In this document: positions 8,840-22,321 of the stretch, in pieces
How the letters are laid out: each line of letters begins with the position of its first letter
How positions within the stretch are numbered: position 1 is the first letter of the stretch
DNA from: a virus
Taxonomy: Duplodnaviria; Heunggongvirae; Uroviricota; Caudoviricetes
IMG/VR virus record: IMGVR_UViG_3300035034_001740
Location: 12,476 to 76,475 of that record
Direction: 5' to 3' (one strand)
DNA length: 64,000 bases
Made by a program: the position numbers and the translations under genes
Notes under the pieces: generated by a model
What the model was told of the DNA's origin: nothing
What the model saw: the letters and a program-made list of their open reading frames with translations, nothing else
The model's database searches: none

Positions 8840-9877
8840 ATGTCTGAATCAGTAGCAGAAAAAAAGAGAGTGGGTGGGAAACAAAAAAAGATTTCCTATT
8901 CGCAGTTTCAAACCTATTTAAAATGTCCTCAAGCATGGAAATATGGGTATATCGACAATATGAGAACATTCGAACAAAATGTTCATTGTGCTTTTGGAAC
9001 CGCTGTTCATGAAGCTATCCAAACCTTCTTATCAGAGTTATATTACAAAGTTGATGGGTCGGATGCTAACGAAACAAAAGGTAGTCGTGCTGCTGATTCG
9101 GTAGACGTTAAGAAAATTTTCGATGATGTATTTGAGAAGGAACTCAAAAACGAATCGAGACGTTCTTGTAAGGATGAAAAAGGTGATTACATTTTAGATG
9201 ATGGAGGACAGAAGACCTATGAAACTGTGAGTGCACCCGTTGTGATTGAAGATTCTGAGAAAGAGAAATTCAGACAACACGGATATCAAATCTTGGATGC
9301 TGCTACAGGTTTAGATTCGAGACGTAAATATTTCCCACCTAAGAAGTATAAATTGTTTGGTATTGAAACTGTTATTGATATGCCAGTGTTGAACAATCTA
9401 AAATTTGTTGGGTATCTTGACATTGTGTTACAAGATGCTAATACAGGCAAATTCAAAATTATCGATTTGAAAACTTCAACTCGTATGTGGAATACGTATC
9501 AACAGAATGATGTGTTCAAGATTTATCAGTTGCTTTTGTATAAGGCGTTTTTTGCACAACAGTTCGGTGTTCCTCTAACAAAGATTGACGTTGAGTTTAT
9601 TGTGTTGAAAAGAACACTGATGGAGAACGTATCGTTTCCCGAAAGCAGACTCCAACGAATCAATCCACCTGCATCCAAAAACTTTGTTAACGAATCGGTC
9701 GCTGATTTGGTTCGTTTCGTAAAACACGGATTTACAGAAGACGGCGAATACAATTTAGAAGGTGAATTCAAAAAGAATCCACACAAAGGAAAGACACGAT
9801 ATAGTAATTGTAAGTATTGTGAATACTCCGTAAAGAATGACGGCCCATGTGACCGCAAAGAAGGAACATGCAATTAA
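8840..9877 (+). CDS. PD-(D/E)XK nuclease, Cas4/RecB-like, with C-terminal Cys cluster
   Basis: YSQFQTYLKCPQAWKY N-motif, LDIV...IIDLKTS (D...D/ExK) and CKYCEYSVKNDGPCDRKEGTC at the C-terminus. Confidence 0.6.
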   Translation: MSESVAEKKRVGGKQKKISYSQFQTYLKCPQAWKYGYIDNMRTFEQNVHCAFGTAVHEAIQTFLSELYYKVDGSDANETKGSRAADSVDVKKIFDDVFEKELKNESRRSCKDEKGDYILDDGGQKTYETVSAPVVIEDSEKEKFRQHGYQILDAATGLDSRRKYFPPKKYKLFGIETVIDMPVLNNLKFVGYLDIVLQDANTGKFKIIDLKTSTRMWNTYQQNDVFKIYQLLLYKAFFAQQFGVPLTKIDVEFIVLKRTLMENVSFPESRLQRINPPASKNFVNESVADLVRFVKHGFTEDGEYNLEGEFKKNPHKGKTRYSNCKYCEYSVKNDGPCDRKEGTCN

Positions 9878-9905
9878 TTTTTAAACAAAAAAAAGAAAAA
9901 ATAAT

Positions 9906-10298
9906 ATGAGTGAATACACATTAGACACAGAAGAAAAGGAAATTGAACCTATTGACGTTTCTACAACACCAGACTTTTCCGATAAGGAAAAGGAACTGTT
10001 ACAGAAGATTGAAGTTCTAACGAACGAATTGGCAGACGAAGGGGTAACCTGTTTCGTTGCTAGTAAGTTCAAAAGCCAAGAGAATCCGTCAGCTGCCTGG
10101 CATTTTGGTACTGATCCAAATGTTGCTTTGTCAGCATTTGCTAAAGACTATGCTCCGTTGTTTCTACACATCACATCTAAGTTCACAGGAACTAAGATTG
10201 TTGCTAGTAACGTAGATAATGGAAGTACTGTATACGAAGTTGACCCACGAGTTAACCAAGATTCACAGTCGGAAACACAGGCACAACCAGAAGCTTAG
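9906..10298 (+). CDS. Hypothetical acidic protein
   Basis: ORF only. Confidence 0.4.
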   Translation: MSEYTLDTEEKEIEPIDVSTTPDFSDKEKELLQKIEVLTNELADEGVTCFVASKFKSQENPSAAWHFGTDPNVALSAFAKDYAPLFLHITSKFTGTKIVASNVDNGSTVYEVDPRVNQDSQSETQAQPEA

Positions 10299-10331
10299 TA
10301 AATACCACTGTTTCTTTATTATTCGAAAAAA

Positions 10332-10362
10332 CATCCGGAGGGTGTATTAACCCCTCCGGATG
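10332..10362 (+). terminator. Strong stem-loop (11-bp stem catccggaggg/ccctccggatg), possible terminator or RNA element
   Basis: Perfect GC-rich inverted repeat right after the 9906 gene; weak U-tract. Confidence 0.4.
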
Positions 10363-10494
10363 TACCGGAGTTATTATACGAAGAATGTAACTCACTATAC
10401 TCATATGATGAGTGGTCGCTCGTTCGGATTTTGAAACATGAGATTTATGAGAATTGAAATACAATCCTCAACCTCTGTCGAACACTGAAATGTC

Positions 10495-11412
10495 ATGGCT
10501 GATAAAAACAATGATACGAAGTCTGATAAGAAATCTGTAAAAGATATTCAGAGTGAACTATTATATTATGATGATGTAGCATTAATTGCTGATTATTATG
10601 ACGGAGATTCAAGAAGCGAATTGGATACCTCCGTAACCTTTGGTTCTCACACGTTTAAGGTTCCTATCACTCCTGCTAATATGAAATGTAGTATTGATTT
10701 CGACTTAGCGGAACAACTGAGTAACTCTGGATATTTTTATGTACTTCATAGATTTTATGATTACGAAAGTATCAAGAATTGGATTCGGAAGAGCCAAGAT
10801 GGATTGGAAATCATATCGATTTCCTTGGGTGTACAACAGAAAGACTATGACTTCATAGACTGGTTAACGGAAATGGGTTCCCCGTTGGTAGATTATATTA
10901 CAATCGATGTTGCCCACGGTCATAGTAAGCCTGTAAAAGACATATTGAGTCATATCACTACTAAGTTCGGTGACAATGAAATAAAACCTTTTATTATTGC
11001 TGGAAATGTAATGACACGGAAGGCCGTTGAAGACCTAAACGATTGGGGTGCTGATGCTGTTAAGGTTGGTATTGGTCAAGGGAGAGTTTGTTTTCTCGGA
11101 GATACTATGGTAAATACGGTAGACGGTAGTTTGAAAATAAAAGATGTTAGAGTTGGTGACAGGGTAATAACACACACAGGAGATTATAAGGTCGTATTGG
11201 ATACAATAGAAAAGTATTCCAATGATATGATTAGTGTGAACGGAAATGTATGTACAAAGAATCACAAGTTTTATGTGATCTACAAATCCGATATTGACTC
11301 TGTAACTGATGAAAACATTCACGATTTCGCTTTTTGGTTGGAAGCCCATAAGATAACAGATGAGCATCTTTTGATAACAGTAGACCAACACCCACTCCAA
11401 AATACTCCGTGA
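10495..11412 (+). CDS. guaC-like: IMPDH/GMP reductase family protein, N-terminal fragment (N-extein 10495-11088) fused to a split-intein N-half (11089-11409)
   Basis: N-extein has ITPANM, TIDVAHGHS and IIAGNV...GADAVKVGIGQGRV, aligning with GuaC up to the catalytic Cys; then intein block A CFLGDTMVNTVDG and block B CTKNHKF; stop after ~107 intein residues. Confidence 0.8.
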   Translation: MADKNNDTKSDKKSVKDIQSELLYYDDVALIADYYDGDSRSELDTSVTFGSHTFKVPITPANMKCSIDFDLAEQLSNSGYFYVLHRFYDYESIKNWIRKSQDGLEIISISLGVQQKDYDFIDWLTEMGSPLVDYITIDVAHGHSKPVKDILSHITTKFGDNEIKPFIIAGNVMTRKAVEDLNDWGADAVKVGIGQGRVCFLGDTMVNTVDGSLKIKDVRVGDRVITHTGDYKVVLDTIEKYSNDMISVNGNVCTKNHKFYVIYKSDIDSVTDENIHDFAFWLEAHKITDEHLLITVDQHPLQNTP

Positions 11413-11643
11413 TTCTCAGTTATAATCAATATGACTTCGGATTCTGAGGTGAAAGAATTTTATACTGGGAGTGTGATATACGAACAGTAAATTTTAAAGT
11501 ACTAGATGAAATAGAAAATGAAATACAAATTTATAGAACCGGAAATAAGTAAAGTTGAATATGAGTTTGATATTCCTGTATACGATCTAGAGATTGAGAG
11601 TGACCATTCATACTGTGTCGGTGAAAATATCATAGCACATAAC
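11089..11643 (+). mobile_element. Split mini-intein in the IMPDH/GMPR gene (IntN 11089-11412, 105-nt gap, IntC 11518-11643)
   Basis: Blocks A and B in IntN; IntC MKYKFIEPEISKVEYEFDIPVYDLEIESDHSYCVGENIIAHN ends in HN followed by +1 Cys (CSTKLKTG matches the GuaC catalytic loop). Confidence 0.8.
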
Positions 11644-12360
11644 TGCAGCACTAAACTCAAAACAGGTTTCACGTGTCCAATGTTTTCTTGTGTTAAACGG
11701 TGTTCTACTCCGATCCATGACGATTTGGAATCCGTTCGGAGTGAGATTCAGACTACAATCTATAATGAAATTAAGCGTGAGTTACACAATCGCCATCCGT
11801 ATATGCCAGTGCGGATATCGGTTGATACCGTATACTCCACCTTACACTATATTAACAATTTGTTGGTTCCTGTGTCGGGTGAGCCAGACAAAATCGACCC
11901 CGACACCATAAAAACGGCAATACAGGTTGAACTACAACGGAGAGTCGATGAAATTACATCAAATAGAATTCCAATCATCGCTGACGGTGGAATGTCTGAG
12001 AACGGAGACATTGTTAAAGCTATTCGTGCTGGAGCAAGTATGACAATGGCTGGAGGTATGTTTGCTGCTTGTGAAGACTCTCCTGCTGAGAATGTGTATG
12101 AGAGCCGTGAAACTACCGAAGGTGTGGATGTGGATATACCACATAAAATAATTAAAAAAAGGTATTATGGTTCTGCCAGCGAAGAGAATAAGGGGCATAA
12201 GAAAAATGTGGAAGGTTTCTTAACAGAACTCAATTGTAACGGATTTACGTATTTAGAAAAACTCGAAGAAATCCAAGGCGATTTACAAAGCGCTATAAGT
12301 TACGCAGGCGGCTCTGGGTTGGATAATCTCAGAGAAGTTGATTACTATATTCTCCGTTAG
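11518..12360 (+). CDS. guaC-like: Split-intein C-half (42 aa) fused to the IMPDH/GMP reductase C-terminal fragment (C-extein 11644-12360)
   Basis: IntC blocks F and G (VYDLEIESDHSYCVGENIIAHN), then CSTKLKTGF...ADGGMSENGDIVKAIRAGASMTMAGGMFA, aligning with the GuaC C-half. Confidence 0.8.
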   Translation: MKYKFIEPEISKVEYEFDIPVYDLEIESDHSYCVGENIIAHNCSTKLKTGFTCPMFSCVKRCSTPIHDDLESVRSEIQTTIYNEIKRELHNRHPYMPVRISVDTVYSTLHYINNLLVPVSGEPDKIDPDTIKTAIQVELQRRVDEITSNRIPIIADGGMSENGDIVKAIRAGASMTMAGGMFAACEDSPAENVYESRETTEGVDVDIPHKIIKKRYYGSASEENKGHKKNVEGFLTELNCNGFTYLEKLEEIQGDLQSAISYAGGSGLDNLREVDYYILR

Positions 12361-12486
12361 ATTTAACATATAAGTATGGCAGAATATTGTTTTTTTGGAG
12401 TGTAAAAACAAATAAAAAATAAAGGTTGTTTATTGGATATATCCTTCATATATACAATATTTAAACTTACCTTTAATTATAAATTG

Positions 12487-12504: not shown

Positions 12505-12541
12505 GTTTTTGTTATCTAACATTAGAAAAAAAAAAGAAATT

Positions 12542-13441: not shown

Positions 13442-14494
13442 TGCGGATGTGGAACAGGCTTCTCCGTTCAAAAGTGTCATGTGTCGAAATTGCCTAAGAT
13501 AACACCACGAACAAAAGGAAAAAAGAAATTTGTTATTCCAGATAACATTGAAGGTTGGGCTGATGCTATCGGTTTGGCAATCAACTCATTCTTTGACGGT
13601 TCATCTGTGTTTCCGGAGAGTAATGGGTATGAAATGGAATTTGATTATTCCAAAATACGACTTGAGGGTTCATTAATATCAGGAGGATTTAAAGCGCCTG
13701 GTCCAGAAGGGCTGAAGGCATCTATCTCCAATATTGTTAATCTTATCGAACGTCGATTGAATTCTCCTGATTTTCATACCGACGGATTTGCTGGTCAGTT
13801 GCGGCCTATTGATGCTTATGACGTTGTGATGCACATGTCGGATGCTGTATTGAGTGGTGGGGTTCGTCGTAGTGCTACTATTTGTTTGTTCTCTCCGGAG
13901 GATACTGAGATGTTAAACGCTAAAACAGGCAATTGGCTTGAAACGAATCCTCAACGTGGTCGTTCGAACAACTCTGTGTTATTGATTCGTGACAAAACAA
14001 CCAAAGAAGCCTTTGAGAAAGTCATGGAGTCTGTCAAAGAATTTGGTGAGCCAGGTTTCGTATGGGCAGAAGACGAAGGTATCCTATATAACCCTTGTTT
14101 AGTGGGTGACACATTGGTAGAGACGGATTGTGGATTAGTCTCAATTCGTGAAATCGTAGAAGACCCATCCAAGTATAAGGTGTTATCATATAACGATTCC
14201 GGTGACTTGGTGTATGAGACTGTAAAGGCCGGCGTTAAAACCCGTGAAAATGCTAACGTTATTAAACTGGAGTTTGATGATGACACTGTGTTAGAATTGA
14301 CATCTGACCACCGAGTGTATACTAACAATCGAGGGTATGTGAATGCCTCTAATTTGACCACTGATGATGAGGTTGTTTCCGTTGATTTTGATAGTGAGTC
14401 GTATTCATCGACGGTTGAGGTAACTGAAGAAGTGTATGTCGATCAATCTAAATGGACTACTCGGGTAATTGAAAATATGAAACCGAGCTGTTAG
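13334..14494 (+). CDS. nrdJ: Intein-1 C-half + NrdJ fragment 2 (extein 13442-14095) + split-intein N-half 2 (14096-14491)
   Basis: IntC blocks F/G; the extein ends ...EDEGILYNP; IntN2 block A CLVGDTLVETDCG, block B LTSDHRVYT. Confidence 0.85.
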   Translation: MRIKKKEYIEDDINYWDITVPEHHNFVLANGAVVHNCGCGTGFSVQKCHVSKLPKITPRTKGKKKFVIPDNIEGWADAIGLAINSFFDGSSVFPESNGYEMEFDYSKIRLEGSLISGGFKAPGPEGLKASISNIVNLIERRLNSPDFHTDGFAGQLRPIDAYDVVMHMSDAVLSGGVRRSATICLFSPEDTEMLNAKTGNWLETNPQRGRSNNSVLLIRDKTTKEAFEKVMESVKEFGEPGFVWAEDEGILYNPCLVGDTLVETDCGLVSIREIVEDPSKYKVLSYNDSGDLVYETVKAGVKTRENANVIKLEFDDDTVLELTSDHRVYTNNRGYVNASNLTTDDEVVSVDFDSESYSSTVEVTEEVYVDQSKWTTRVIENMKPSC

Positions 14495-14701
14495 AAACTG
14501 AATATGGTCTGAGTGCTGTGATTGTGGATGACATCACAACTTATTGTGGGGCCAACTATGAAAACGAACTTAAAAAAAATGGAAATTAATAAAAAAATTA
14601 AAAAAATAAAACGAATCTCAATTATATCAAATCAAGATGTATACGATATAACGGTAAACAATACCCATAACTTTTTTGCCAATGGGACTTTAGTTCATAA
14701 C
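14096..14701 (+). mobile_element. nrdJ split mini-intein 2 (IntN 14096-14494, gap, IntC ending 14701); inserted at the NPC(V)E radical-Cys motif
   Basis: IntC ...ISIISNQDVYDITVNNTHNFFANGTLVHN then +1 Cys; the spliced product reads ILYNP-CVEIGF, i.e. the N-P-C-x-E thiyl-radical motif. Confidence 0.8.
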
Positions 14702-15490
14702 TGTGTTGAGATTGGATTTTATCCGTCATTGGATATTAACATGTTATCCGATGCGAAGTTGGCTAAGTTCAAACAGAGCCCGGAATACAAAGACGGAAAG
14801 AATTTGTATAACGGTTGGCAAGCATGTAATCTCTGTGAGATAAACATGAAGAAGGTTAAAACTGCTGAAGACTTTAGACAAGTATGTCGTGCTGGTGCTT
14901 TCATAGGAACGCTTCAAGCTGATTATACTAAATTCAAATATTTAGGATTAACCTCCCAGTATCTTGTCGAACAAGAAGCGTTGATTGGTGTATCAATGAC
15001 AGGTATGATGGATTCTCCTGAAATTGCATTTGATCCAAAGGTTCAACGTGACGGAGCAAAACAGGTTCTTGATATGAATGCTATTACAGCAAAACATATT
15101 GGAATCAACGTTGCCGCTCGTGGAACCTGTGTAAAGCCGGCGGGGTGCCTTGATACAAATCAAGAAATTAAAACGGTTGATGGTAATAAAACTATATTAT
15201 CCATTTTCGAAGACCAAGGGTTTACATTGAAAGAGCTACAGTCCATGGATGGTGAGTGGCTCGACTTAAAAAGTCCCGTTCAGATTTACAATGAGAATAA
15301 TGAATTAGAAAATATATCTAAATTATATGTCAATGGCAACATAGAGGTATATGAGATTCCTATGGAAGATGGCAGTGTAATCAAATGCACACCATGGCAC
15401 AAATTTAAATTGGTGAATGGCGATTGGAAGCGTGCTGATGAACTAGATGAAGGTGACGATATTTTAAATTTTGATATTGTGGGGAACTGA
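14558..15490 (+). CDS. nrdJ: Intein-2 C-half + NrdJ fragment 3 (extein 14702-15145) + split-intein N-half 3 (15146-15487)
   Basis: Extein contains ACNLCEI and ends ...ARGTCVKPAG; IntN3 block A CLDTNQEIKTVDG, block B KCTPWHKF; start ambiguous among 14522, 14558 and 14579 (the 14579 Met gives a 40-aa IntC). Confidence 0.8.
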   Translation: MKTNLKKMEINKKIKKIKRISIISNQDVYDITVNNTHNFFANGTLVHNCVEIGFYPSLDINMLSDAKLAKFKQSPEYKDGKNLYNGWQACNLCEINMKKVKTAEDFRQVCRAGAFIGTLQADYTKFKYLGLTSQYLVEQEALIGVSMTGMMDSPEIAFDPKVQRDGAKQVLDMNAITAKHIGINVAARGTCVKPAGCLDTNQEIKTVDGNKTILSIFEDQGFTLKELQSMDGEWLDLKSPVQIYNENNELENISKLYVNGNIEVYEIPMEDGSVIKCTPWHKFKLVNGDWKRADELDEGDDILNFDIVGN

Positions 15491-17280: not shown

Positions 17281-19200
17281 ATGTCGATTATAAAATCAAT
17301 TGTAGAACAATATAAACAATCTAAAGATGAAGAGTATTCATTGGAAGATTACATTGAATTGTGTAAGACGAATAAGTTAGCTTATGCTTCACCCGCTGAG
17401 AGAGTTTTAGACGCTATAGGTGATCCTGAACTTATCGATACTCAGAAAGACCCAACGATGGGAAGAATCTTTCAGAATAGAACAATTAAGGTATATCCAG
17501 CGTTCAAAGATTTTTATGGGCTCGAAGAGGTCATTGAACAAATCGTTGGTTATTTTACTCACGCTGCTCAAGGGTTGGAAGAAAAGAAACAAGTGTTTTA
17601 TCTTCTTGGACCTGTCGGTGGTGGTAAATCGTCTTTGGCTGAACGGATCAAGGAATTGGTTGAGGTTCACCCAATTTACGTTCTAAAGGCTGGTGATACA
17701 ATTTCTCCTGTTTTCGAATCTCCGCTTTCTTTGTTCAATGAGTCTCACTCTGAGGAACTTGGGATTCCAAAGAATCGACTAAAGACAATTCTTTCGCCTT
17801 GGGCAATCAAACGTCTTGACGAATATGGTGGAGACATTTCAAAGTTTTCCGTTGTTCGTATGATGCCTTCTAAACTTCGTCAACGTGGTGTTGTTAAGAC
17901 GGAACCAGGCGATGATAACAACCAAGATATCAGTTCGTTGGTTGGTAAGGTTGACCTTCGTAAGTTGGATGAACTTAGTCAAAATGATCCAGATGCTTAC
18001 TCATTCAGTGGTGCTCTTTGTCGTGGTAATCAAGGTGTTATGGAGTTCGTGGAAATGTTCAAGGCTCCAATCAAAACTCTTCACCCATTGTTGACTGCTA
18101 CACAAGAAGGTAACTATGTTGGTTCGGAAGAAATTGGACCTATTCCTTTCGACGGTGTTGTTATGGCTCACTCCAATGAATCTGAATGGAAGACTTTTAG
18201 AAACAACAAGAATAATGAGGCGTTCTTAGACCGTATCTATCTTGTAAAGGTTCCATACTCTGTTCGTTACGACGAAGAGAAGAAGATTTATGAGAAGTTG
18301 CTTAGAGAATCTAATCTCTTCGACGCTCCTTGTGCTCCAAAGACACTTGAGATTCTATCCAAGTTCTCTGTATTAACACGATTGGTTGAACATGAGAATT
18401 CAGACTTGTTTACCAAGTTACGAATCTATAATGGCGAAAACTTAAAAGATGTTAAGCCAGACGCTAAGTCGGTTCAAGAGTATAAAGACTATGCTGGTCT
18501 TGATGAAGGCATGAGTGGGTTCTCCACACGAGCAGCTTTCAAAGTATTATCAAAGACATTCAATCATGATGCTAACGAGATTGCTGCTGACCCAATTCAC
18601 CTGATGTATGTGTTGGAAGAGGCTGTTAAGAAAGAACAGTATGGTTCTGAGAAAGAAGATGAATATATCAACCTTATTAAGAACACTTTGACTTCTAAGT
18701 ATGCTGAGGAAATCGGCAAGGAAATTCAAAAGGCTTACCTTGAATCATATAGTGATTACGGACAGAACATCTTTGAACGGTATGTTAACTACGCTGACCA
18801 CTGGGTTCAAGATCAGGAATACAAAGACCACGATACAGGTCAACTCATTTCCAAACACGCTCTTGAAGCTGAGCTTGAGAAGTTGGAGAAGCCTGCTGGA
18901 ATCGGCAACGTTCAAGACTTCCGACATGAGATTGTAAACTTTGTTCTTCGATCTAAGTCAAAGAATGGTGGTAAGTTCCCACGTTGGGATTCATTCCAAA
19001 AGATGAAGGATGTAATCGAACACAAGATGTTCGCTTCAACAGAAGAACTGCTTCCTGTTATCTCATTCGACTCTAAGAAGTCTTCCAAGGATACAAAGAA
19101 ACACAATGACTTCGTATCACGTATGGAGAAGAACGGTTACACTCTACGTCAAATCAAGAGAGTCGTTGACTTCTACATGAGATACTCAAAGAGTAACTAA
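17281..19200 (+). CDS. prkA: PrkA family serine protein kinase (AAA+ ATPase domain)
   Basis: Walker A LLGPVGGGKSSLAERIKEL; ~640 aa; overall PrkA/YeaG architecture. Confidence 0.88.
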   Translation: MSIIKSIVEQYKQSKDEEYSLEDYIELCKTNKLAYASPAERVLDAIGDPELIDTQKDPTMGRIFQNRTIKVYPAFKDFYGLEEVIEQIVGYFTHAAQGLEEKKQVFYLLGPVGGGKSSLAERIKELVEVHPIYVLKAGDTISPVFESPLSLFNESHSEELGIPKNRLKTILSPWAIKRLDEYGGDISKFSVVRMMPSKLRQRGVVKTEPGDDNNQDISSLVGKVDLRKLDELSQNDPDAYSFSGALCRGNQGVMEFVEMFKAPIKTLHPLLTATQEGNYVGSEEIGPIPFDGVVMAHSNESEWKTFRNNKNNEAFLDRIYLVKVPYSVRYDEEKKIYEKLLRESNLFDAPCAPKTLEILSKFSVLTRLVEHENSDLFTKLRIYNGENLKDVKPDAKSVQEYKDYAGLDEGMSGFSTRAAFKVLSKTFNHDANEIAADPIHLMYVLEEAVKKEQYGSEKEDEYINLIKNTLTSKYAEEIGKEIQKAYLESYSDYGQNIFERYVNYADHWVQDQEYKDHDTGQLISKHALEAELEKLEKPAGIGNVQDFRHEIVNFVLRSKSKNGGKFPRWDSFQKMKDVIEHKMFASTEELLPVISFDSKKSSKDTKKHNDFVSRMEKNGYTLRQIKRVVDFYMRYSKSN

Positions 19201-19209
19201 TTCAATCAT

Positions 19210-19238
19210 CCCCACAAGAGAACCTTGTGGGGGTTTTT
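19210..19238 (+). terminator. Rho-independent terminator (ccccacaag/cttgtgggg stem, then TTTTT)
   Basis: 9-bp perfect stem right after the prkA stop. Confidence 0.6.
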
Positions 19239-19251
19239 ACTAAATTAATTT

Positions 19252-19449
19252 ATGCCAAGACAAGAAAATAAAAAGCAGTTGGTGGTGAAGATGGAACGTG
19301 AACCTGTTAACGGTGAAATATTTGATGTTCTGAAAATCGATGGTCAAGAGATTGTCGCATTTCATGTAACGAATATTGATAGGTTAGGATTGGAACACAA
19401 TAATAAAACTATGGCGGATGCTGTAGTAGACTACCTCACAAAGAAATAA
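19252..19449 (+). CDS. Hypothetical protein
   Basis: 65-aa ORF between prkA and yeaH. Confidence 0.35.
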   Translation: MPRQENKKQLVVKMEREPVNGEIFDVLKIDGQEIVAFHVTNIDRLGLEHNNKTMADAVVDYLTKK

Positions 19450-19451
19450 TT

Positions 19452-20735
19452 ATGGCTCGTATTATAGACAGACGTAAAAATTTGAAAGGGAAATCGACAA
19501 GTAATAGACAACGTTTTATTAAGCGTGCTAAAGAAGCTATTCGCGAATCCCTCAAAGATAAGATTAGAGGTCGTAAGGTAACTGACACGTCAACGGGTGA
19601 AAACGTTATAATCCCAAAAGAAGGTATCAAAGAACCTACGTTTGGTCACGACTGGGAAACTGGTAAGAAGAATGATGTTCGTCCAGGAAACAAGACGTAT
19701 AAAAAAGGTGATACAATTCGTAGGCCTCCAGAAAACGCCGGTGGTGGTGGAAAACAAGGTTCTAATGGTGATGAAATTTCTGAGGATGAATTTGAGTTTG
19801 CTTTAAGTAAAGAAGAATTTTATGACTTGTTCTTTGAAGATTTGGAACTTCCAAATTTACAAGATAAGGAAATGAAGGAAATAAAAAACTTCAAGAGTGT
19901 CAGAGAAGGCTTCCGTAAAGATGGAAGTATATCAAACCTCGACAAGTTGCAGTCTTATAAGAATTCGTTGGGTAGACGAATTGCTCTTAAACGACCCTCA
20001 AAGAAAGTTCTTGATAAGTTGGAAGTTGATCTGATCGAAGCTGAGGATGAAGAAGATATCAAGACACTCGAAGAGAAAATCATGAAGATGAAAAAGAAGT
20101 TCCGTCAGGTTCCTTTCTTTGATGAAGTTGACATGAGATTCCGTAACTACAATCTCAAACCACAACCTAATGACAAGGCTGTTATGTTTTGTGTAATGGA
20201 TGTGTCTGCTTCGATGGGTGAACACGAAAAGGGTTTGTCAAAACGATTCTTCATGTTACTTTATATGTTCCTTGAACGTAAGTATGAACATACTGATATC
20301 ATATTCATTAGACACCACACAGCGGCGTCTGAGTGTGATGAAGAGACATTTTTCCATTCAAAGGAAACAGGTGGAACGGTTGTTAGTTCAGCGTTTAAGT
20401 TATTGAAAGAAATTCAACGTGAAAGATACCCTACGAATGAATGGAATATCTACATCGCTCAATGTTCTGATGGTGATAACTTCGGAGACGATACCGCTGA
20501 GGTTATTAACATTCTTCAAAACGATTTGCTTCCGATTACACAATACATGGCATACATTCAAACAGAATATCATAGATCGAGGTATTCGGATATGTATTTC
20601 AATTCTGATTATGGGTTGTGGTGCCATTATGATGTGTTACGAGATACCGCTAGTAACTTCGATATGAAACAGGTGAATCAATCTCCTGATATATGGAAGG
20701 TGTTCATTGAACTATTCAAGAAACAAGATAGATAA
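19452..20735 (+). CDS. yeaH: YeaH/YhbH family protein (DUF444/UPF0229, vWA-like)
   Basis: N-terminus MARIIDRRKNLKGKSTSNRQRFIKRAKEAIRE matches the YeaH/YhbH signature; 427 aa. Confidence 0.85.
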   Translation: MARIIDRRKNLKGKSTSNRQRFIKRAKEAIRESLKDKIRGRKVTDTSTGENVIIPKEGIKEPTFGHDWETGKKNDVRPGNKTYKKGDTIRRPPENAGGGGKQGSNGDEISEDEFEFALSKEEFYDLFFEDLELPNLQDKEMKEIKNFKSVREGFRKDGSISNLDKLQSYKNSLGRRIALKRPSKKVLDKLEVDLIEAEDEEDIKTLEEKIMKMKKKFRQVPFFDEVDMRFRNYNLKPQPNDKAVMFCVMDVSASMGEHEKGLSKRFFMLLYMFLERKYEHTDIIFIRHHTAASECDEETFFHSKETGGTVVSSAFKLLKEIQRERYPTNEWNIYIAQCSDGDNFGDDTAEVINILQNDLLPITQYMAYIQTEYHRSRYSDMYFNSDYGLWCHYDVLRDTASNFDMKQVNQSPDIWKVFIELFKKQDR

Positions 20736-20740
20736 AAGTT

Positions 20741-22321
20741 ATGCCAAGAAAGTCAAAGTTGTTATATAATAGTGCCGAATGGGATTTTGACGCGATTCGT
20801 AGAGTATACGATGAATGTGACAAAATCGCTAAAGAGGAACTAAAGTTAGATATATACGAAAATCAGATTGAAATGATTTCATCTGAACAGATGCTTGATG
20901 CTTATACATCGGTGGGAATGCCTATCATGTATAATCATTGGAGCTTCGGAAAACATTTCGTCCAAGAGTCTACAAAATATAAGAGAGGTCAAATGGGATT
21001 GGCATACGAAATCGTCATTAACTCAGACCCTTGTATTTCGTATCTCATGGAAGAGAACACCATGACCATGCAGACATTGGTTATTGCTCACGCTGCTTTC
21101 GGTCATAACTATTTCTTCAAGAACAATTATCTGTTTAAAGAATGGACTGATGCTAGTGGCATCATACCGTATCTTTCATTCGCTAAACGTTACATCTCTG
21201 AGTGTGAAGAGAAGTATGGTGAACGTGAAGTTGAACTAATTCTCAACAGTTGTCATGCGTTGAAGAACCATGGCGTCAACAAATACAAAAGGCCGCCTCA
21301 GCTTTCAGTGGGCGAAGAGAAGTTACAACAACAAGAACGTCAAGACTTTTTGGATTCTTCTGTAAATCACTTGTGGAGAAGTTTCGACTCTACAACAAGA
21401 GACGGAGTGAACCCTAATACTTTTCCTGAGAAAGAGGAAGAGAACATTTTGTACTTCATGGAGAAGCATGCACCTAACCTTGAACCTTGGCAACGAGAAA
21501 TCATTCGTATCGTTCGTAAGGTAGCTCAATACTTTTATCCCCAACCTCAAACAAAGACCATGAATGAAGGGTGTGCTACATACGTTCACTACTACATCAT
21601 GAATCGTTTGTATGATAAGGGTAAAATCTCAGACGGTAACATGAAAGAGTTCTTAATCTCACACACCAATGTTGTTCATCAACCTGATTATGATGATGTA
21701 GTTATCTATAAAGACGAAAACGGCGAAGAGAAGTCATACAGTCGTTACAATGGTATTAATCCATATGCGTTAGGATTTGATATGTTGAGAGACATGGAAC
21801 GTATGTGTAAGAATCCAACGGAGGAAGATAAATACTATATGCCTGAGGTCGCTGGTACTGATTGGTTGGAAACGTTTCATTATTCGATGCAGAACTTTCG
21901 TGACGAAAGTTTCATCAGACAATACCTTAGTCCTACTATGGTTAGAAAGTGGAAGATGTTTGTTATGAATGATGACGCTGATGAAAGTTTATATAAGATA
22001 TCTGCTATCCAAGATCAAACAGGGTTCAACAATGTTAGGAACGCATTAGCAGAACAACACATGATAACTAATTACTATCCTGAGATTAAGATTACTAATG
22101 TCGATATTAAAGGTGATAGGTCAATGTTATTGACTCACCAATCACATGACGGTGTCGAAATCGGTAAAGACGATATAGAAGACATGATGAAACACTTGTA
22201 TCGTCTATGGGGTTATAACATTAAGATTGAAAGTTATAACTCAGAAGACGGAAGTATTATCGAAGAGTTTGAAACTGACTTTTCGGATGTGGAAGAAGAG
22301 GATGATGAATTTCCGTTTTAA
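20741..22321 (+). CDS. spoVR: SpoVR family protein
   Basis: ENQIEMISSEQMLDAYTSVGMPIMYNHWSFGKHF matches the conserved SpoVR N-domain; acidic C-terminal tail. Confidence 0.85.
   Translation: MPRKSKLLYNSAEWDFDAIRRVYDECDKIAKEELKLDIYENQIEMISSEQMLDAYTSVGMPIMYNHWSFGKHFVQESTKYKRGQMGLAYEIVINSDPCISYLMEENTMTMQTLVIAHAAFGHNYFFKNNYLFKEWTDASGIIPYLSFAKRYISECEEKYGEREVELILNSCHALKNHGVNKYKRPPQLSVGEEKLQQQERQDFLDSSVNHLWRSFDSTTRDGVNPNTFPEKEEENILYFMEKHAPNLEPWQREIIRIVRKVAQYFYPQPQTKTMNEGCATYVHYYIMNRLYDKGKISDGNMKEFLISHTNVVHQPDYDDVVIYKDENGEEKSYSRYNGINPYALGFDMLRDMERMCKNPTEEDKYYMPEVAGTDWLETFHYSMQNFRDESFIRQYLSPTMVRKWKMFVMNDDADESLYKISAIQDQTGFNNVRNALAEQHMITNYYPEIKITNVDIKGDRSMLLTHQSHDGVEIGKDDIEDMMKHLYRLWGYNIKIESYNSEDGSIIEEFETDFSDVEEEDDEFPF

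Follow-up and report, generated by a model that had tools for sequence, protein, structure and literature searches.

A predicted split intein of the IMPDH-1 family divides a phage GMP-reductase-like gene at its catalytic cysteine and encloses the relic of a homing endonuclease gene

How is an enzyme to be obtained from a gene that breaks off directly before the codon of its catalytic cysteine? This question is raised by two adjacent open reading frames (ORFs) in a 64,000-nt stretch of DNA from a virus of the Caudoviricetes (IMG/VR record IMGVR_UViG_3300035034_001740, positions 12,476 to 76,475), referred to here as the window. The analysis covered this 64-kb window, which has a G+C content of 38%; all coordinates are window positions, and all parts of the split gene lie on the + strand. 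We read the locus as a phage gene for a guanosine monophosphate (GMP)-reductase-like enzyme (GuaC type 2), laid out as two adjacent cistrons and divided by a naturally split class-1 intein of the IMPDH-1 family, and assign this reading as a whole a probability of about 85%.

ORF1 (10495-11412, stop codon 11410-11412) encodes 305 amino acids (aa), namely a GuaC N-extein of 198 aa (10495-11088; GMP-reductase-like residues 1-198), which ends in GADAVKVGIGQGRV with the loop sequence GIGQGRV, and an N-terminal intein part (IntN) of 107 aa (11089-11409), which opens with CFLGDTMVNTVDG. The Cys1 codon of IntN lies at 11089-11091, and its block B, CTKNH with Thr56 and His59, is found in the string CTKNHKF. 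After an intercistronic spacer of exactly 105 nt (11413-11517) follows ORF2 (11518-12360, stop codon 12358-12360) with 280 aa, composed of a C-terminal intein part (IntC) of 42 aa (11518-11643; MKYKF...ENIIAHN, last residues VYDLEIESDHSYCVGENIIAHN, with the terminal pair His41-Asn42) and a C-extein of 238 aa (11644-12357), in which the +1 Cys codon (11644-11646) is that of the catalytic-loop cysteine in CSTKLKTGF. Joining the exteins in silico results in a 436-aa protein with the junction GIGQGRV/CSTKLKTGF. The original prediction, made from the sequence alone, had described this two-ORF layout with its 107-aa IntN, 105-nt gap and 42-aa IntC, and each of these elements was recovered at its place; the two ORFs belong together and should be annotated as one GMP-reductase-like gene product.

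The exteins had been assigned to the GuaC/IMPDH family, and profile searches bear this out for both. On the NCBIfam GMP reductase model PRK05458, the N-extein covers positions 4-177 (E 9e-55) and the C-extein positions 201-317 (E 3e-33), and the Pfam IMPDH/GMPR model PF00478 matches both halves as well (E 2.5e-24 and 1.9e-16), with the N-extein on positions 3-181. The N-extein could further be aligned to residues 14-194 of B. anthracis GuaC (1ypf). As a whole, the joined protein scores 315 bits (315.3) on PRK05458 versus 121 bits on the IMP dehydrogenase model TIGR01302, and a PDB sequence search ranks B. anthracis GuaC first (E 5.6e-70). For structure prediction with AlphaFold, an alignment of 16 GMP-reductase homologues with the joined protein as first row (A1) was used; the resulting model has a mean predicted local distance difference test score (pLDDT) of 82, and its best Foldseek match is GuaC 2a1y with a target TM-score of 0.92. 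With no CBS domain found by Pfam in the joined protein, the model predicts a GuaC-type triosephosphate isomerase (TIM) barrel without a CBS subdomain. The gene is read as GuaC type 2-like, with a predicted NADPH-dependent activity that would reduce GMP to inosine monophosphate (IMP). Among GenBank phages no close relative was found, the only matches being distant GMP reductases in Bacillus phage G, Xanthomonas jumbo phages and others.

The break was also claimed to fall directly before the catalytic cysteine, and the alignment agrees: Cys199 of the joined protein is the catalytic-loop cysteine and is invariant across the 16 aligned homologues of A1. All 66 invariant columns of A1 are kept in the joined protein, by construction, as it forms the first row. 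The loop motif G-I-G-x-G-x-x-C-[ST]-T is complete only after in-silico splicing (GIGQGRVCSTK, aligned to GIGPGKVCITK of 1ypf), and the uninterrupted metagenomic homologue P0003 reads GIGQGRVCSTKLKTGF, with the junction string GIGQGRVCSTKLKTGF in identical form. From what is known of the family, we take this cysteine to form the covalent thioimidate of the reaction.

Homology and conserved residues make a well-founded case that the sequence between the exteins is a class-1 naturally split intein, predicted to adopt a HINT fold and to splice in trans. In the comparison with published metagenomic IMPDH split inteins, which the original prediction had proposed, joined IntN and IntC proved a full-length homologue of the IMPDH-1 split intein, aligned by BLASTP from Cys1 to the terminal His-Asn with 41% identity (E 2e-32). 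IMPDH-1 was described among the 'fractured genes' of the GOS metagenome (Dassa et al. 2009, PMC2677866); for its sequence, and for the native junction GGG/SIC, the supplement of Pinto et al. 2020 (PMC7090010) was used. It trans-splices in vivo and in vitro, orthogonally to NrdJ-1, gp41-1 and gp41-8 (PMC11168065). The split point is shared between the two inteins (...HLLITVD / MKYKF in the window, ...HLLIELE / MKFKL in IMPDH-1), IntC is alignable to its IMPDH-1 counterpart from the first Met to the terminal His-Asn, and the IntC parts of the nearest relatives start alike (MKYKFVKPEIQ in L004, MKYKLTIPVV in L077, MKYRLLKPEI in L079).

The set of class-1 splicing residues is complete, with Cys1, Thr56-x-x-His59, His41-Asn42 of IntC and the +1 Cys (...IIAHN/C). 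In an alignment of 22 members of the intein family (A2), Cys1, Thr56 and His59 are invariant, and all of the family-invariant IntN residues (C1, F2, G13, H29, T56, H59, Y62, V63 and W83) are kept in the window IntN. Hint-type profile matches begin at residue 198 of ORF1, and the NCBIfam model intein_Cterm (TIGR01443) matches residues 20-43 of ORF2 with 19.8 bits at a cut-off of 15.6. Searching the PDB by sequence returned weak matches for the intein, to a bacterial intein-like domain (E 7.5e-4), gp41-1 (E 0.08) and, over 34 residues, the DnaE intein chain 7qil (E 0.33). The cyanobacterial DnaE split inteins (Ssp, Npu) are likewise naturally split, of class 1 and among the earlier known split-intein genes, but their gene halves reside in separate loci of a cellular host and encode another host protein. 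DnaE split inteins have a +1 Cys and are not known to have an associated endonuclease. As a separate observation, the intein part of ORF1 (residues ~146-296) gives weak matches in DNA cytosine methyltransferase genes of the ~350-kb Escherichia jumbo phages A4, TH47, JNE01 and UE-S1, which probably represent unrelated inteins.

In the proposed mechanism, derived from the anatomy of the locus and from the homologous IMPDH-1 intein, two polypeptides would be made, GuaC(1-198)-IntN (107 aa) and IntC (42 aa)-GuaC(199-436), whose intein parts would associate into one HINT domain. Cys1 would form a thioester at Val198, which would be attacked by the +1 Cys, that is, by the enzyme's own catalytic cysteine; cyclisation of the terminal IntC Asn would release the intein, and an S-to-N shift would yield a 436-aa enzyme with its native loop, GIGQGRV-CSTKLKTGF. 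Until splicing occurs, the TIM barrel would be cut within its active-site loop and the catalytic cysteine would be bonded to the intein, so that enzyme activity should, as a reasonable expectation from the sequence, depend on splicing.

An intein-free counterpart of the gene is found in the relative L089, which has the same gene order (homologue of a 130-aa ORF, guaC, nrdJ) at ~71% nucleotide identity to the window. Its guaC encodes, without interruption, a product of 434 aa (P0002) that shares 58% identity with the joined protein and reads GIGPGSVCSTRLKTGF, and the nucleotide similarity between L089 and the window ends at 11081, seven bases before the intein. Since the syntenic guaC of L089 is uninterrupted, the intein is an insertion into the gene of this lineage, and its precise excision would yield the orthologous guaC sequence. 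The nrdJ gene of L089 also lacks the first nrdJ intein of the window (YLLLCGCGTGFS).

IMPDH-1 and the window element share the IMPDH/GMP reductase TIM-barrel host and its catalytic loop, homology over their full length, the split position, an IntC start of the form MK[FY]K, Cys1 and the terminal His-Asn, a setting in phage-like environmental DNA, and NrdJ split inteins alongside. They differ in the point of insertion, which in the window lies two residues further downstream (GRV/CST versus GGG/SIC); the +1 nucleophile is therefore the catalytic cysteine in the window and the serine two residues before it in IMPDH-1. They differ further in that the window has no endonuclease gene between the halves, with a relic of ~150 nt in its place, and in that a neighbour-joining tree of IntN sequences largely sets inteins at the window's site apart on a branch of their own.

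How widespread this second site is was assessed with the IntN sequence. A word-index search with the joined intein returned no match; relatives came from an exhaustive phmmer search with IntN alone against 1.84 billion metagenomic protein cluster representatives, which gave 690 matches at E<=1e-3 and 234 at E<=1e-10. Sites and splits were counted for the best 150 cluster representatives. About 90% of these stop within a few residues of the IntN end, i.e. are split, and 13 run well past it, of which one belongs to an unrelated protein of 1435 aa and the other 12 lie at the two main sites of GMPR-like hosts. Insertion follows G-I-G-x-G, the IMPDH-1 point, in 85 of them and G-I-G-x-G-x-x, the window's point, in ~49, about one third, with a few at other points of the same host (GIG/C, CTTRxxxG/C and PQLSAIIE/C); the relatives' N-exteins share the GIGxG loop end. 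In the tree, the two sites are largely separate, with nearest neighbours from the same site in 42 of 50 and 79 of 85 cases, and the window IntN stands among the members of its own site.

For viral genomes, both halves were compared at each of 72 IMG/VR loci obtained with an alignment-based scan, after a scan with ORF1 as a single protein found no relative in IMG/VR. Of 53 loci with the intein at the IMPDH-1 point, 52 have a C-extein that opens with S-x-C-[ST]-T, which puts Ser at +1 and the catalytic Cys at +3; at the window's point, the C-extein begins with the catalytic Cys itself in all five. One locus has a +1 Cys at the IMPDH-1 point. Further points of the same host are occupied by this intein family in L006, L008 and L012 (CTTRxKTG/C...HN/CGYPQLS), in L010 (GTG/C...HN/CGC), and in P0171, P0231 and P0246 (PQLSAIIE/C). 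The family is very common in viral metagenomes; 185,579 species-representative genomes yielded three matches, all in metagenome-assembled genomes, and ten members at the window's site that were looked up are all unannotated metagenomic ORFs.

The window intein is thus a non-allelic sister of IMPDH-1, shifted by two codons, in a family known since 2009, and not a new kind of element. A full-text literature search found no paper on an IMPDH or GMP reductase intein at the GRV/CST point, which may still be published, and the site may mark a sister lineage of IMPDH-1, itself a very fast intein, that has a Cys at +1 and is so far undescribed. Within a single loop, members of one intein family are inserted at two points 6 nt apart, and at each point use the nucleophile at hand, Ser or the catalytic Cys. 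The findings on this locus leave the current view of how inteins work unchanged.

The spacer had been described as a gap with no sizeable ORF. This holds in that no + strand ORF of at least 30 aa is present, but the spacer is not featureless, since it is taken up by the relic of a lost free-standing homing endonuclease gene of the Vsr-like/NUMOD3 type (11397-11549, third + frame). Read in this frame, the region gives PKYSVILSYNQYDFGF (11397-11444), an in-frame TGA (11445-11447), and GERILYWECDIRTVNFKVLDEIENEIQIYRTGNK (11448-11549) followed by a second stop; the relic overlaps the end of ORF1 on its 5' side and the first 35 nt of ORF2 on its 3' side. The last four to five IntN codons (...QNTP) and the IntN stop codon would then be endonuclease DNA read in another frame. 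In tblastn searches of the whole window with the relatives' endonucleases, the top endonuclease-domain matches fall on the relic (E 7e-7 for L079, 2e-6 for L077, 5e-5 for L004), and when the window, translated into 3944 six-frame fragments, was searched with a hidden Markov model of the endonucleases, the two relic fragments took the two top ranks. With L080, residues 218-312 align to 11397-11540 in tblastn, and the pairwise alignment takes the form PKYSTILGYNQYDFGFKNERIL, a single gap of 47 residues, YIWEDDINNNNFEILEKIKNEIQIYRT (E 1.7e-14); residues 221-250 of L004 align with a pairwise E of 3e-8. The relic has lost ~220 codons at the 5' end of the gene (the zinc-finger and NUMOD3 region) and a further 47 in the nuclease core (LEVQGDYWH...); the segments that remain are homologous and lie where, and in the order in which, they would be expected. 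The mini-ORF of 19 codons at 11431-11490 (MTSDSEVKEFYTGSVIYEQ) was considered as a GIY-YIG remnant and dropped, as the significant homology lies in the other frame and is to Vsr-like/NUMOD3 enzymes.

Intact forms of this gene occupy the same place in most relatives, where the halves lie 800-1150 nt apart and the gap holds an ORF of 260-370 aa with Pfam matches to NUMOD3 repeats and weak matches to Vsr or REase_MTES_1575; a 'Vsr-like' endonuclease family was described for IMPDH-1 and IMPDH-2 by Dassa et al. (PMC2677866). In the nearest relatives L004, L077 and L079, the gene between the halves encodes a NUMOD3 endonuclease of 317-321 aa, whose 3' end overlaps the IntC start by 32 nt in L077 and L079, compared to 35 nt for the window relic. 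Among 13 IMG/VR relatives with a short gap, ten retain the 3' end of the endonuclease gene (L019, L020, L021, L036, L040, L051, L058, L066, L070 and L073), as a stretch of 25-100 codons adjoining IntC; in L019, the 35 retained residues are 100% identical to the C-terminus of the intact endonuclease in L018. Endonuclease decay therefore looks directional, with the 5' part deleted and the 3' end kept, and the recurrence of this pattern suggests a constraint on how fractured loci decay. In the close relative L080 (1402-2868), a single 488-aa ORF encodes the NUMOD3 endonuclease, IntC and the C-extein as an in-frame fusion, an arrangement reminiscent of the path by which, according to the fractured-gene model, an intein that contains its endonuclease could arise again.

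The history of the locus may be pictured as follows. In an ancestral fractured gene, IntN and IntC would have flanked a free-standing homing endonuclease gene of the Vsr-like/NUMOD3 type, as in the nearest relatives; of this gene, ~220 codons from the N-terminal part and 47 from the core would have been lost in two deletions, and the remainder would have acquired a nonsense codon, with the ~150-nt relic as outcome, its 3' end still overlapping the IntC start. This 3' end was probably retained because the translation start region of the IntC cistron lies there. With the endonuclease lost, the element could no longer home. A precedent is the gp41-7 locus (step III in the model of Dassa 2009), which likewise has adjacent halves, each with its split-intein part, and has lost the free-standing endonuclease gene. 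It differs in host gene and intein, and for gp41-7 the paper reports only an upstream hairpin as retained, whereas the window has alignable endonuclease coding remnants and no significant hairpin: a regulatory hairpin as reported for fractured genes was not found in the spacer, whose RNA fold is like that of shuffled sequence (z -0.36), and a consensus scan of the spacer found no promoter-like or terminator-like site. In the fractured-gene model, the last step documented so far is that a split-intein locus loses its homing endonuclease gene; the window exemplifies this step cleanly, with alignable coding remnants, and not mere absence, as the evidence.

Several points weigh against the reading of the locus as a spliced GMP reductase. 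The joined protein stays below the curated NCBIfam cut-offs for GMP reductases (315.3 versus 344 bits for NF003966, 285.2 versus 465.65 bits for TIGR01306), while the GMP reductase models are still by far its best families. It also has an unusual insertion of ~85 aa (11710-11964, residues ~221-305 of the joined protein, outside the intein) that adjoins the catalytic loop, right after the catalytic-loop helix, and has no counterpart in solved GuaC, where query residues 210-306 face chain residues 194-211 of 1ypf. A variable form of this insertion is found in the intein-free relatives P0002 and P0004-P0007, and in the AlphaFold model it consists of two helices (226-248 and 284-304) with a low-confidence or disordered linker between them. 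On account of the sub-cut-off score and the insertion, we name the protein GMP-reductase-like and not a proven GuaC. On the side of the intein, the Pfam model Hint_2 falls marginally below its cut-off (28.2 versus 28.4 bits), and the single-sequence AlphaFold model of the joined intein is poor (pLDDT 28), so the HINT fold is predicted from homology to IMPDH-1. IntN has an extra tail of ~8 aa, created by deletion, a clear ribosome-binding site or promoter for ORF2 was looked for and not found, and no public assembly searched contains a complete ORF1.

Part of these points would also fit decay, i.e. that after the loss of the endonuclease the intein or the enzyme is non-functional and the ORFs are on their way to becoming pseudogenes: the endonuclease gene is already wrecked by deletions and a stop codon, deletion has altered the C-terminal tail of IntN, and the joined protein scores below the curated GMP reductase cut-offs. 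We consider this distinctly unlikely, because both ORFs are intact across 305 and 280 codons, the catalytic intein residues are all kept, as are all 66 invariant GMP-reductase columns (by construction of A1), identical sequence recurs in several independent metagenome assemblies, and only the dispensable endonuclease is hit while the intein is spared, the pattern expected under selection on the host gene.

A different concern is the assembly itself. The contigs with identical sequence from the independent assemblies (L001, L002, L076/L081, L082, L083 and L084-L086) abut at two shared places, 9631-9642 and 11074-11093: left-flank contigs end at ~9631, a contig of 1.44 kb spans ~9633-11077, and right-flank contigs start at 11074 or 11093, the right break thus lying 11-15 nt from Cys1. 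Repeats were looked for at the two break points and none were found, nor was an alternative haplotype, homologues of the upstream ORF coming from other samples only. The link between N-extein and intein could thus be a chimera of two strains joined near 11077, in keeping with the common break at 11074-11093 and with the lack of a complete ORF1 in the assemblies on record. We hold such an artefact to be very improbable, as contig L001, from another assembly, includes 15 nt of the N-extein and reads GQGRV/CFLGD in frame, which independently confirms the extein-intein junction; the abutting contigs are identical to the window, ~49 unrelated clusters share the GIGxGxx/CF architecture, and a join by chance is not expected to give back the conserved loop to the exact residue. 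The simplest reading of the shared breaks is a population polymorphism or a recombinant block with one edge at the intein insertion point.

That the halves work unspliced, with IntN and IntC as mere dimerisation modules, has a precedent in a fragmented ribonucleotide reductase described as assembled via interaction domains derived from a mobile element (PMC3045599), but is highly unlikely here, given that the splicing residues (Cys1, TxxH, His-Asn and +1 Cys) are all conserved, that the break lies within the catalytic loop and would leave the catalytic cysteine on the intein, and that the homologous IMPDH-1 does splice.

The guaC intein, read as a splicing element, is not the only one in the window. 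Downstream, the ribonucleotide reductase gene nrdJ is present as four ORFs with intein motifs at the ORF ends, amounting to three split inteins, so that four intact split inteins lie within 6 kb in two nucleotide-metabolism enzymes, and at least two of them use a catalytic cysteine as +1 nucleophile. The guaC element had been called a fourth split intein distinct in sequence from those of nrdJ, in agreement with a similarity between them that is confined to generic intein blocks and at best reaches 23% identity over 92 aa (E 5e-4), in keeping with a single genome that encodes four mutually orthogonal pairs. IMPDH-1 is widely used as a fast, orthogonal split intein and leaves a Ser at the junction. 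Its natural relative in the window has a +1 Cys instead and, as one of four pairs that occur together and are presumably orthogonal, is a candidate tool for protein engineering.

The second nrdJ split intein (14400-14710, at the end of the second and the start of the third nrdJ ORF; LYNP/C...HN/CVEIGF) sits directly before the thiyl-radical cysteine. Relative to the published NrdJ-1 junction, NPC/SEI, it is shifted in the same manner as the guaC intein, making the catalytic Cys the +1 residue. Insertion directly before a catalytic cysteine that doubles as +1 nucleophile is also known from the NrdA point, the most frequent site of contiguous ribonucleotide reductase inteins, N-terminal to the thiyl-radical Cys of class I and II enzymes (Dassa 2009, PMC2677866); host enzyme and chemistry differ there, the cysteine being a thiyl radical, and the inteins are unrelated in sequence. 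It is conceivable, but in our view unlikely, that the guaC intein is kept as a post-translational switch gating GMP reductase and ribonucleotide reductase together during infection, via a reversible disulfide between Cys1 and Cys+1 or the timing of expression of the halves.

The split gene is part of a phage-type nucleotide and cofactor module on one strand, with genes for a cytidylyltransferase-Nudix protein, a histidine phosphatase, a nicotinamide phosphoribosyltransferase, a phosphoribosyl pyrophosphate synthetase and a PD-(D/E)XK exonuclease, followed by the guaC halves and the four pieces of nrdJ; no tRNA genes were found in the window. In this setting, and judging from its family, the phage GMP reductase would turn guanine nucleotides into IMP. 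A perfect 12-nt inverted repeat of terminator-like form lies at 10331-10363, between the 130-aa ORF and guaC, and in a poly-A run upstream of the nrdJ start (~12526-12536) the window and contig L001 differ by one base. Just downstream of nrdJ and a gene of the Cob_adeno_trans (cob(I)alamin adenosyltransferase) family, genes for a PrkA-like AAA kinase, a DUF444 protein and a SpoVR-like protein (Pfam labels) stand in a row at 17281-22321.

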